From: a phage | Sequence record: PZ049720.1 | Length of the DNA: 4,451 nt | Direction: 5' to 3' (one strand) | In this document: positions 744-4,291 of the stretch, piece after piece | How positions within the stretch are numbered: position 1 is the stretch's first letter | Layout of the letters: the number at the start of each line of letters is the position of its first letter | Notes under the pieces: model-generated | Told to the model about the DNA's origin: nothing | Seen by the model: only the letters and a program-made list of their open reading frames with translations | Databases searched by the model: none | Position numbers and translations under genes: made by a program

Positions 744-1357
744 ATTTCGACCCTTGCGTCAGAACCCTTGAAAAACGGCGGCTAGTGTAACCGAGAGGTG
801 CAAGGCCGCACAGGTGAGCGATCGGTTTGGCAGGCTTTAGAGCCAGTCTGTCGTGGTGAACCTTGTGATCGCAAACGCAGCCCCAATATGAGAGCTGTGG
901 GGACTGCCAGCCAGTCGTGACGCAGTGCTTTCTGCGAAACGGCGCGCGATTCGGTCTCCGGATACTGCATTCGGCTCGGTTTTTTTGATCAAGATATTTC
1001 AGGATGCGCGCTCTACGCGTACTTGAAAGCGTTGCGGCAGGCGTTCGAGAGCATGTAGACAAGCAAAGCCGCGGTGGCCTCGCGACCGCTCCAGTGCGCA
1101 ATATCTGCTTGTCCATGGCTTTACGGGTGTGCCGAACGAACAGACCCGTTTGTGCGAAAAGGCCGGTTTGGCGGTCTATTCATGCGGGCGTCGGCCAATG
1201 GACGGCCCCGTACGGCAAGGACTAGGCTGTTTCATGGGGTTACAGACCGACTGCCTGTTCCAGTGCGTTGTGTAGTAAGTTAGGCCGAGCAACCAACCGG
1301 CCGTCATGCGGGCCCGCGGACACGGGTTTGCTCCAGAGGGTAGTTAATTTGAACGAC
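744..1357. promoter_or_regulatory. 614-bp non-coding divergent spacer between yhbY and ftsH; presumed to hold both promoters and the ftsH 5' leader
   Basis: Stop codons occur in all three + frames in the stretches translated by hand. The only ORFs are short with odd composition. An AT-rich island with a T7 run lies at 976-1000. Weak sigma32-like elements (CTTGTGA 862-868, CCCCAATAT 881-889) are present. No confident -35/-10 pair could be assigned. Confidence 0.4.
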
Positions 1358-3271
1358 ATGGCAAAAAACCTGATCCTGTGGCTGATCATCGCCGCCGTCC
1401 TGGTCACGGTGATGAACAACTTCTCCAGCCCGAGCGAGCCGCAGACGCTGAACTACTCGGACTTCCTTGAGCAGGTCAAGGAGGGGCGCGTGGAGCGCGT
1501 GACCGTCGATGGTTTTGTCATCATCGGCAAGCGTAGCGACGGCGACACCTTCAAGACCATTCGCCCTGCGATCCAGGACAACGGCCTGATCGGCGATCTG
1601 CTCGACAACAATGTGCTGATCGAGGGCAAGCAGCCTGAGCAGCAGAGCATCTGGACACAGCTGCTGGTGGCCAGCTTCCCGATCCTGGTGATCATCGCCG
1701 TGTTCATGTTCTTCATGCGGCAGATGCAGGGCGGTGCTGGCGGCAAGGGCGGGCCTATGAGCTTCGGCAAGAGCAAGGCTCGCCTGCTCTCCGAGGATCA
1801 GGTCAAGACCACCTTCGCTGACGTCGCCGGTTGCGACGAGGCCAAGGAAGAAGTGCATGAGCTGGTGGAGTTTCTCCGCGACCCGGGTAAGTTCCAGCGT
1901 CTCGGCGGCCGTATTCCGCGTGGCGTGCTGATGGTCGGTCCGCCCGGTACTGGTAAGACGCTGCTGGCCAAGGCGATTGCCGGTGAGGCGAAGGTGCCGT
2001 TCTTCACCATCTCGGGTTCGGATTTCGTCGAGATGTTCGTCGGTGTCGGCGCCAGCCGGGTCCGCGACATGTTCGAACAGGCCAAGAAGCACGCGCCTTG
2101 CATCATCTTCATCGACGAGATCGACGCGGTCGGTCGTCATCGTGGTGCCGGCCTCGGCGGCGGGCACGACGAGCGCGAGCAGACCCTCAACCAGTTGCTG
2201 GTGGAGATGGATGGCTTCGAGATGAACGATGGCATCATCGTCATCGCGGCTACCAACCGTCCCGACGTGCTCGATCCGGCGCTACTGCGTCCGGGCCGCT
2301 TCGACCGGCAGGTGGTCGTAGGTTTGCCGGACATCCGCGGTCGCGAGCAGATTCTCAAGGTGCACATGCGCAAGGTGCCGGTCAGCGAGAACGTCGAGCC
2401 GGCGGTCATCGCCCGCGGTACGCCGGGTTTCTCCGGTGCGGACCTGGCCAACCTGGTCAACGAGGCGTCCTTGTTCGCTGCGCGGGCCAACAAGCGCATC
2501 GTCGAAATGCGCGAGTTCGAACTTGCCAAGGACAAGATCATGATGGGCGCCGAGCGCAAGTCCATGGTCATGTCCGAGAAAGAGAAACTCAATACCGCGT
2601 ATCACGAGGCTGGGCACGCCATCGTCGGGCGCGTGGTGCCGGAGCATGACCCGGTCTACAAGGTTTCCATCATTCCTCGCGGGCGGGCGCTGGGTGTCAC
2701 CATGTTCCTGCCGGAAGAGGATCGCTACAGCCTGTCGAAGCGCGCACTGATCAGTCAGATCTGCTCGCTGTTTGGTGGTCGAATCGCCGAGGAAATGACC
2801 TTGGGCTTCGAAGGCGTCACTACTGGCGCTTCCAACGACATCATGCGCGCCACTCAGTTGGCGCGGAACATGGTGACCAAGTGGGGCTTGTCGGAGAAGC
2901 TTGGCCCGCTGATGTATGCCGAAGAGGAGGGTGAGGTCTTCCTCGGTCGCAGCGCTGGCAGTCAGCACGCCAACGTTTCCGGCGAGACCGCCAAGCTGAT
3001 CGATGAAGAGGTGCGCAGCATCATCGATCACTGCTATGGCACCGCCAAGCAGATACTCACCGAGAACCGCGACAAGCTGGACATGATGGCCGAAGCACTC
3101 ATGAAGTACGAAACCATCGATGCACCGCAGATCGACGACATCATGGCGGGCCGTCCACCGCGCGAACCGCGTGACTGGGAAGGTGGCGGTACCGGCACGT
3201 CCGGGACGCCGGCCGTGCCGGATGACAATCGTCCGCAGACGCCGATTGGTGGTCCCGCCGGGGAGCATTGA
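1358..3271 (+). CDS. ftsH: ATP-dependent zinc metalloprotease FtsH (AAA+ membrane protease), 637 aa
   Basis: N-terminus [15 protein letters not shown] is the conserved FtsH start. Walker A GPPGTGKT, Walker [10 protein letters not shown], second region of homology [20 protein letters not shown], and zinc-binding HEAGHA are all present, with two N-terminal TM segments. The ORF track start at 1268 (TTG) is an upstream in-frame extension; ATG 1358 was chosen by homology. TTG at 1349 with AGAGGG 8 nt upstream is a possible alternative start. Confidence 0.96.
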
Positions 3272-3439: not shown

Positions 3440-4291
3440 ATGAACAACTCGTCTTCACCTGCTCGACTGGTCTGCGGCAGTCGAGTCCTCGATCTTTCCC
3501 GTCCCCATGTCATGGGGATTCTCAATGTCACCCCCGATTCCTTTTCCGATGGTGGTCGCTTCGCCGAGCGCGATGCCGGCATTGCGGCACGCCCGGGCGA
3601 TGGTTGCAGCAGGGGCTACGCTGATCGATGTGGGGGGGAGTCGACCCGTCCGGGCGCGCGTTCAGTTTCGCCGACCGAGGAGCTGGAGCGGGTTGCCCCC
3701 ATTGTCGAGGCCATTGCTGGCGAGCTGGATGTCGTGATCTCGGTCGACACCTCGACGCCTGCGGTGATCCGCGAGTGCGCGCGGCTGGGCGCCGGTCTGA
3801 TCAACGACGTGCGCTCGCTACGACGGGATGGTGCGCTGGACGCAGCGGCCGACACCGGTTTGCCGGTCTGTCTCATGCACATGCGCGGCGAGCCTGGGGA
3901 TATGCAGGACGATCCGCGCTATGACGATATCACTGCGGAAGTTGCGTCGTTCCTAGGTGAGCGAATGGCGGCGTGCGCAGCGGCAGGCATTCTGGCAGAG
4001 CGCATCGTGCTCGACCCGGGGTTCGGCTTTGCCAAGACGCTGAATCACAACCTCGTGCTGTTCAAGCATATGGAAAAGCTTCACCGACTGGGGCGTCCGC
4101 TGCTGGTGGGCGTGTCGCGCAAGAGCATGATCGGTGGCGTGCTGGGGCGTCCGGTGGGTGAGCGGCTGTATGGCAGCCTTGCGCTGGCGGCCCTGGCCGT
4201 CAGCAAGGGGGCGCAGATCGTGCGGGTGCACGATGTGGCCGAGACGGTTGACGTAATTCGAATGATCGCTGCAGTGCAGGCGGCAGAGTAG
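3440..4291 (+). CDS. folP: Dihydropteroate synthase (FolP), 283-aa uninterrupted ORF, with an internal compensating frameshift pair that puts about 18-20 codons out of frame relative to homologs
   Basis: N-terminal [23 protein letters not shown], then GGESTRPGA...EELERV...ISVDTS...GLPVCLMHM...[10 protein letters not shown]...[12 protein letters not shown]...IVRVHDV all match DHPS motifs. AAGG lies 8 nt upstream of the ATG. Codons 3578-3637 read [18 protein letters not shown] in frame, whereas the +1 frame (3579-3638) reads the expected [20 protein letters not shown]. Confidence 0.85.
3578..3638 (+). other. Out-of-frame segment inside folP, bounded by an apparent +1 insertion (GCCGGC, 3575-3580) and a -1 deletion in a 7-G run (3632-3638)
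   Basis: Hand translation of both frames. Frame 0 gives the DHPS-like [20 protein letters not shown]. The ORF frame gives non-conserved [18 protein letters not shown]. Flanks on both sides are conserved in the ORF frame. Confidence 0.7.

Follow-up and report, generated by a model that had tools for sequence, protein, structure and literature searches.

In E. coli and Pseudomonas aeruginosa the rRNA methyltransferase gene rlmE lies upstream of ftsH, as a sequence-only reading of the present DNA had stated and as published accounts agree (PMC9927249; PMC6629908), and the question raised by this locus is what has become of that gene in Stutzerimonas stutzeri. The window, by which we mean the whole stretch of 4,451 nucleotides analysed here (record PZ049720.1), matches Stutzerimonas (Pseudomonas) stutzeri sensu stricto and was compared with A1501 (CP000304.1), which is 99.6% identical to it, and with nine other S. 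stutzeri genomes of 98.6-99.8% identity. An rlmE gene is indeed absent between yhbY and ftsH, as the earlier reading had stated; the interval 744-1357 is 614 bp long, its length in every one of the eleven S. stutzeri sequences being 614 or 615 bp, and no gene is called in it in the 10 other S. stutzeri genomes. Stop codons, previously noticed in every plus-strand frame, were found in all six frames, and the longest open reading frame, of 73 aa, varies between strains.

The window opens inside a small membrane-protein gene, whose 3' end extends to 400. This hydrophobic protein of ~144 aa is encoded between greA and yhbY in all the S. stutzeri genomes and gave only a weak DUF4149 match (E 0.11). 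The yhbY gene follows on the minus strand (432-743) and encodes a CRS1/YhbY RNA-binding protein of 103 aa (PF01985, E 1.1e-25) that is identical in many S. stutzeri genomes; it is transcribed divergently from the former rlmE. Beyond the interval, the plus strand carries ftsH (1349-3271), encoding an AAA+ zinc protease with FtsH_ext (PF06480), AAA (PF00004) and Peptidase_M41 (PF01434) domains, then folP (3440-4291) and the start of glmM (4302 onward). In folP, the window alone differs from the 10 S. stutzeri genomes, having one C more at 3576 and a G8 run (3634-3641) that is shorter by one G. The pair puts 19 codons out of frame and alters a conserved pterin-binding segment; either the second frameshift compensates for the first or both are errors of sequencing.

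We find that the spacer is very probably a unitary pseudogene, that is, a dead rlmE eroding in place while regulatory DNA for ftsH is retained. MAFFT aligns it collinearly over its whole length with the rlmE regions of S. frequens, P. lopnurensis and strain 24a75. Its first part (744-826), the upstream region shared by yhbY and rlmE, shows no large gaps when aligned with the sequence upstream of intact rlmE in rlmE-positive Stutzerimonas. The former TTG start of rlmE is kept at 827-829 and opens a 5' stub on the plus strand (827-859, as aligned by MAFFT with intact rlmE loci), in which ten codons survive (LAGFRASLSW against LARSKTSPRW in S. frequens) before an in-frame TGA created at a deletion junction at about 855/856. 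The deletion of ~310 bp removed codons ~11-114, and with them the first catalytic lysine (the K38 equivalent) and the SAM-binding motif VVDLGAAPGGW, which explains why the earlier search for a SAM-motif string in the spacer came back empty. The decayed 3' half of the gene (856-1143, plus strand, codons ~115-210, recognised by tblastn and the clade HMM) contains frameshifts between frames +1 and +2 and internal stops, and it has lost the rlmE stop codon; its translation matches RlmE residues ~115-206.

The tblastn search that had been proposed for this spacer, run with S. frequens RlmE, gave a best segment of 37 bits, whereas none of 1000 dinucleotide-preserving shuffles scored above 25, and so points to a pseudogene, an outcome that the sequence-only reading had itself named as refuting its observation. 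An HMM built from 52 intact RlmE sequences matched frame +2 of the remnant with an E value of 2.4e-5, the best shuffle reaching 0.14. FtsJ was the sole Pfam family match on the remnant and fell below threshold (E 0.083; 13 bits, cutoff 24), hence the homology claim depends on the close relatives. Several segments are still readable: VNLVIANAAP stands for the intact VDLVISDMAP and GSVFLIKIFQD for GGDFLIKIFQG, while the remnant AYLKALRQAFESM aligns with the intact AYLKEVRQNFEKV and KPRWPRDRSSAQYLLVHGFTG with a 21-residue segment of intact RlmE. RlmE belongs to family PF01728 and has the catalytic tetrad K38, D124, K164 and E199 (E. coli numbering). In the remnant SDMAP has become ANAAP (D to N) and SREQY has become SSAQY (E to A), and of the K-D-K-E tetrad only the lysine of LIKIFQ remains.

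The collinear alignment together with the residual RlmE similarity identifies the spacer as an rlmE remnant and not foreign DNA. The disabling lesions sit at the orthologous position and close relatives carry intact orthologues, as is characteristic of a unitary pseudogene; with neither an uninterrupted ORF of 206-216 aa nor a SAM-binding motif, the locus cannot yield RlmE. The gene is accordingly dead in its position rather than missing from it. Of the relocation, loss or decayed remnant offered by the sequence-only reading, the remnant and a loss of function in this lineage stand, and relocation is not supported, given the decay in place and the canonical position of every intact RlmE examined. 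The resemblance in size between spacer and rlmE turned out to be a coincidence, the normal interval being about 300 bp longer than the spacer. The interval should rather be annotated as an rlmE pseudogene plus ftsH leader than as empty intergenic DNA.

To describe how the parts of the spacer evolve, we counted segregating sites among the eleven S. stutzeri sequences. The remnant has 7.0 segregating sites per 100 bp (20 in 287 bp), close to the 5.5 per 100 bp at third codon positions of ftsH; the first and second codon positions of ftsH have 0.3 per 100 bp. Downstream of the remnant the leader shows 0.9 per 100 bp (two in 227 bp), and upstream of it the segment 744-836 has a single variable column (813). 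Indel polymorphisms occur in the remnant at 854 and 914. The remnant drifts at about the neutral rate, with no codon periodicity, and both flanks are conserved. Relative to intact rlmE, the remnant has diverged by 30% at the former first and second positions and by 41% at the third, and the 30% is more than the distance to S. frequens measured on ftsH would predict. We propose that the surviving constraint would be regulatory, comprising the yhbY/rlmE upstream region, a 29-bp two-box element inside the remnant, and the ftsH leader; the downstream genes which this DNA would serve are essential.

The comparison of synteny across related genomes, also suggested earlier, was made with one scan of a one-genome-per-species collection using YhbY as query. 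It returned 80 loci, 78 of them with both genes on the contig, and across these 78 Pseudomonadaceae species the yhbY-ftsH interval is bimodal. An intact rlmE lies between the two genes in 52 species (RlmE of 206-216 aa, interval about 836-947 bp), among them P. paraeruginosa (L066), the P. putida group, Azotobacter, S. frequens, P. lopnurensis and strain 24a75. In the other 26 the gene is broken or eroded, with either a near-full-length interval of 797-898 bp containing a broken gene or an interval of 386-735 bp containing no ORF. The S. stutzeri state is derived.

In a neighbour-joining tree built from 4.1 kb of ftsH-folP-glmM the dead copies are scattered, and their lesions differ between groups. 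Dead rlmE is found in S. stutzeri sensu stricto, in the songnenensis/kunmingensis/chloritidismutans group, in S. azotifigens 115A1 (L038), in the MAG L027, and in strain KOS6 (L017), which differs in its deletions and retains the N-terminal 66 codons, now gone from S. stutzeri. Further cases are Metapseudomonas boanensis (L057), whose one frameshift could stem from an error of sequencing, M. resinovorans DSM 21078 (L062), whose copy has three stops and 52% identity, and a clade of 14 Aquipseudomonas/P. alcaligenes-like species that ranges from 885-bp broken genes to 400-bp residues. The separate tree positions and the differing lesions of these sequences imply at least about seven independent inactivations. 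In L015, a kunmingensis-like MAG, a GGGTTGCA tandem repeat at ~226-260 of the interval has expanded directly 3' of the second box (CCCCAATAT) of the two-box element, and this accounts for the longer interval there (514 bp against 476-490).

It should be noted that how many events took place inside core Stutzerimonas, and when, is uncertain, since recombination has made the locus a mosaic and the remnant is more diverged than expected. Between S. stutzeri (L001) and S. frequens (L011), third-position divergence is 7-9% in carA and carB and 26-32% in ftsH, folP and glmM; this jump indicates a homologous-recombination breakpoint near yhbY/rlmE, so that dead and live rlmE alleles may move between species. 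Dating of the S. stutzeri event by divergence was abandoned, as the remnant looks older than the ftsH-based S. frequens split and the flanks are mosaic. Presence and absence of rlmE within species, considered from RlmE proteins labelled S. chloritidismutans and S. azotifigens, was likewise rejected; the loci concerned are ~80% identical to the dead L019 and L038 and hence belong to different species. In the searchable literature we found no account of rlmE loss in stutzeri or of rlmE pseudogenes.

With the relatives at hand the other explanations of the spacer can be weighed. That the organism has an intact rlmE and the record is garbled might be thought of in view of the two private single-base indels in folP of the same window, which look like errors; yet the deletion and the decayed sequence, with ordinary polymorphism, recur in eleven S. 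stutzeri assemblies made independently, several being complete genomes, and an artefact of sequencing or assembly is thereby refuted with near certainty. Equally negligible is the probability that rlmE was cleanly deleted or relocated and that the spacer is unrelated DNA, for example the scar of a mobile element or a newly arisen gene for a non-coding RNA. The missing ORF and SAM-motif string would suit such an origin, as would the outcome of the Rfam 15 search, which at permissive thresholds returned no match at E <= 1 over the whole window. It is refuted by the end-to-end collinearity with rlmE and the significant protein similarity, and neither tandem repeats (none found in 744-1357) nor Rfam matches speak for a scar or an RNA gene.

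A different matter is whether RlmE activity itself has been kept, a xenologue or a non-homologous 2'-O-methyltransferase having made the syntenic copy redundant. This would be compatible with the pseudogene and would change its meaning. Among the rRNA methyltransferases of E. coli, RlmE is the only one that, when lost, leaves growth and 50S assembly severely impaired (PMC9074899, PMC12123411), and repeated loss in free-living bacteria of a gene that cripples E. coli when deleted suggests some buffering. Alternative A-loop enzymes do exist in RlmE-less lineages: RlmR, of the SPOUT family, makes Um2552 in T. thermophilus (PMC12123411), and RlmP makes Gm2553 in B. subtilis (PMC9380741). Against a replacement by a xenologue, every intact RlmE examined occupies the canonical position between yhbY and ftsH. 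Moreover, the best 120 relatives of S. frequens RlmE (at least 85% identity) fall into clusters of at most 49 contigs, and S. stutzeri YhbY is found in 1640 blocks, which argues that no close RlmE accompanies the commonly sequenced S. stutzeri. We therefore regard kept activity as rather unlikely, though it deserves to be taken seriously. With the unitary pseudogene as the preferred reading, we would expect S. stutzeri 23S rRNA to be without RlmE-made Um2552 unless a non-homologous enzyme supplies it.

The two-box element that escaped decay consists of CCTTGTGA (861-868), a 12-nt spacer and CCCCAATAT (881-889); it lies on the plus strand, faces ftsH and is embedded in the former rlmE codons 116-126. 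A regular expression found it in 33 of the 35 dead copies, and the other two have a variant form. Among 19 distinct dead copies conservation is 0.97 in the first box, 0.98 in the second, 0.76 in the spacer and about 0.55 in the flanks, and in many remnants the GAC immediately before the first box has become GGC. Among the 52 intact genes, codons 116-127 read D-L-V-I-S-D-M-A-P-N-M-S and hardly vary at synonymous sites; the stretch uses codons seldom found in the rest of rlmE, namely CTT, ATT, CCC and AGT (51 of 52 genes each) and AAT (50 of 52). In one lineage with intact rlmE, L075, the element is missing and these places are filled by the common codons CTG, ATC, CCG, AAC and AGC, from which it follows that the protein does not need the rare ones. 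Judged by this pattern of conservation, an element acting at the DNA or RNA level is embedded in the coding sequence.

We suggest that the element is a sigma-32 (RpoH)-type promoter for ftsH-folP-glmM, independent of rlmE and with a predicted start near 895-898. Two invariant boxes held at a fixed distance with a free spacer between them have the appearance of a promoter footprint. The remnant reads CTTGTG-N13-CCCCAATAT and the intact genes CTTGTG-N14-CCCCAATAT, and the sigma-32 dnaKp1 scaffold is CTTGAA-N14-CCCCATTTA (PMC10216364). The box spacing of the intact form thus equals that of dnaKp1; by inspection, the -35 box CTTGTG has four of the six bases of CTTGAA, and the -10 box is CCCCAA, not CCCCAT, with a matching CCCCA core. 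In P. aeruginosa, overproduction of RpoH induces ftsH, folP and glmM, genes grouped by that study as the "ftsH operon" (PA4749-PA4751) without mention of rlmE (PMC9866376); the supplement of that study has no gene-level entry for PA4750-PA4753. A scan of 400-1500 with the sigma-70 consensus gave no site. An embedded promoter would explain why the rlmE pseudogene has never been cleanly deleted, and also why this element alone would be preserved across independent decays.

The island 861-889 could instead be another kind of cis element: it might, for example, bind a transcription factor, govern processing or stability of the RNA within a long 5' UTR of ftsH, or serve yhbY. Its -35 box matches any consensus weakly, and transcripts from the old rlmE promoter must cross the region, which leaves room for a role at the RNA level. 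On the other hand, short invariant boxes around a spacer of fixed length and variable sequence are the classical footprint of a promoter, and the CCCC-A motif with its 13-14-nt spacing fits sigma-32. A position-dependent operator agrees poorly with the varying distance of the island from yhbY (~118 to 470 nt) and from ftsH (~230 to 480 nt). A function other than that of a promoter consequently seems unlikely to us.

Returning to the candidate promoter, its length differs between living and dead genes. The island is 30 nt long in 50 of 50 intact genes and 29 nt in 32 of the 35 dead copies. The missing nucleotide came from the C run in 29 of these 32 (28 have C4 for C5, and L034 reads GCCC), and the remaining three lost an A to give CCCCCATAT. 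The three dead copies that still have 30 nt (L017, L038 and L057) are the least-decayed pseudogenes. Once the constraint of the reading frame was lifted, the distance between the boxes may have been cut by 1 nt, in parallel, in many lineages. The shortening is either repeated promoter optimisation after the death of the gene or itself the inactivating frameshift in many lineages. In its strongest form the latter alternative holds that regulation of ftsH has driven the deaths of rlmE: the reading frame would hold the embedded promoter at a suboptimal spacing, and selection for expression of ftsH-folP-glmM would kill rlmE, as a spacing-improving loss of 1 nt necessarily shifts its frame. From these sequences we consider such driven deaths improbable; the three youngest pseudogenes are without the 1-nt loss, which fits optimisation post mortem at least as well.

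Other features of the interval may bear on transcription. At 765-772, in the conserved yhbY/rlmE upstream region, the window contains CCCTTGAA, which we take to agree at every position with the extended -35 consensus of sigma-32; no CCCCAT-like -10 box was found 13-15 nt after it. Three terminator-like hairpins were predicted in 400-1500, compared with 1.1 +/- 1.3 expected by chance. One of them, at 958-974, has the sequence CCGGATACTGCATTCGG and is followed by a T7 run (958-984 for the whole, plus strand); it lies in the remnant ~70 nt 3' of the island. Its T run arose by decay of GGTGATTTCTTG and four of its positions are polymorphic among strains, and on account of this polymorphism the hairpin is probably fortuitous. 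If active, it would attenuate read-through to ftsH.

Between the remnant and ftsH lies the intergenic leader (1144-1348, plus strand, aligned in 38 species), which is present whether rlmE is alive or dead. It contains two boxes that are invariant across the 38 species, GGGTTACAGAC (1237-1247) and TGTAGTAAGTTAG (1271-1283), situated 23-25 nt apart. Folding of each sequence by itself places a GC-rich hairpin between the boxes (1248-1270) and a second one at 1284-1304 (GGCCG...CGGCC or GTTGGT...ACCAGC), the stem sequences differing between species. RNAalifold, applied to the leader of 34 species, gave 4 weak pairs, no compensatory changes and no consensus structure. The boxes might form a promoter, act in attenuation or mark a site of processing.

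The start of ftsH, earlier placed at ATG 1358, is probably the TTG at 1349, 9 nt upstream. The spacing from the Shine-Dalgarno sequence GAGGG (1336-1340) fits this TTG, TTGAACGAYATG at the start is invariant across 38 species save for a synonymous GAC/GAT change, and the resulting 640-aa form of FtsH (MNDMAKNL...) is the one called in 7 of 10 S. stutzeri genomes.

If the count of inactivations is right, free-living pseudomonads with large genomes have discarded rlmE about seven or more times. These lineages would be natural knock-outs standing beside rlmE-keeping relatives, as S. stutzeri does beside S. frequens, and their comparison could show what buffers the loss of Um2552, be it suppressors, alternative enzymes, or differences in the A-loop or in assembly factors. 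The two-box island would further offer a clear case of regulatory DNA that lies within a coding sequence, survives the gene containing it and undergoes parallel re-tuning when the coding constraint ends.

In its neighbouring genes, their order and their orientation the locus is identical to the E. coli rlmE(ftsJ/rrmJ)-ftsH(hflB) heat-shock operon and the arrangement of P. aeruginosa, where greA, a small ORF and yhbY are divergent from rlmE, ftsH, folP and glmM (PMC6629908; PMC9927249) and ftsH belongs to the RpoH regulon (PMC9866376). It differs from both in that the S. stutzeri rlmE is a remnant without its SAM-binding domain, so that the operon effectively opens with a long untranslated leader. 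Like Thermus with RlmR and Bacillus with RlmP, S. stutzeri is an RlmE-less lineage that is nevertheless free-living and fast-growing; those absences are ancient and at the level of phyla, whereas the loss seen here is recent, repeated and within a family that otherwise keeps rlmE. The closest parallel for the proposed promoter is the ftsJ-ftsH operon of Neisseria meningitidis (PMC5449619), which has an ftsH-specific start downstream of the ftsJ promoter and hence likewise transcribes ftsH independently of ftsJ. There the start was mapped experimentally, whereas the S. stutzeri element, inside codons 116-126, is deduced from conservation. Finally, the remnant behaves as other unitary pseudogenes that keep regulatory signals, most of the gene being neutral with islands under purifying selection, but it seems to be unlike them in that the same island has been kept in about seven or more independent decays, with a parallel shortening by 1 nt.
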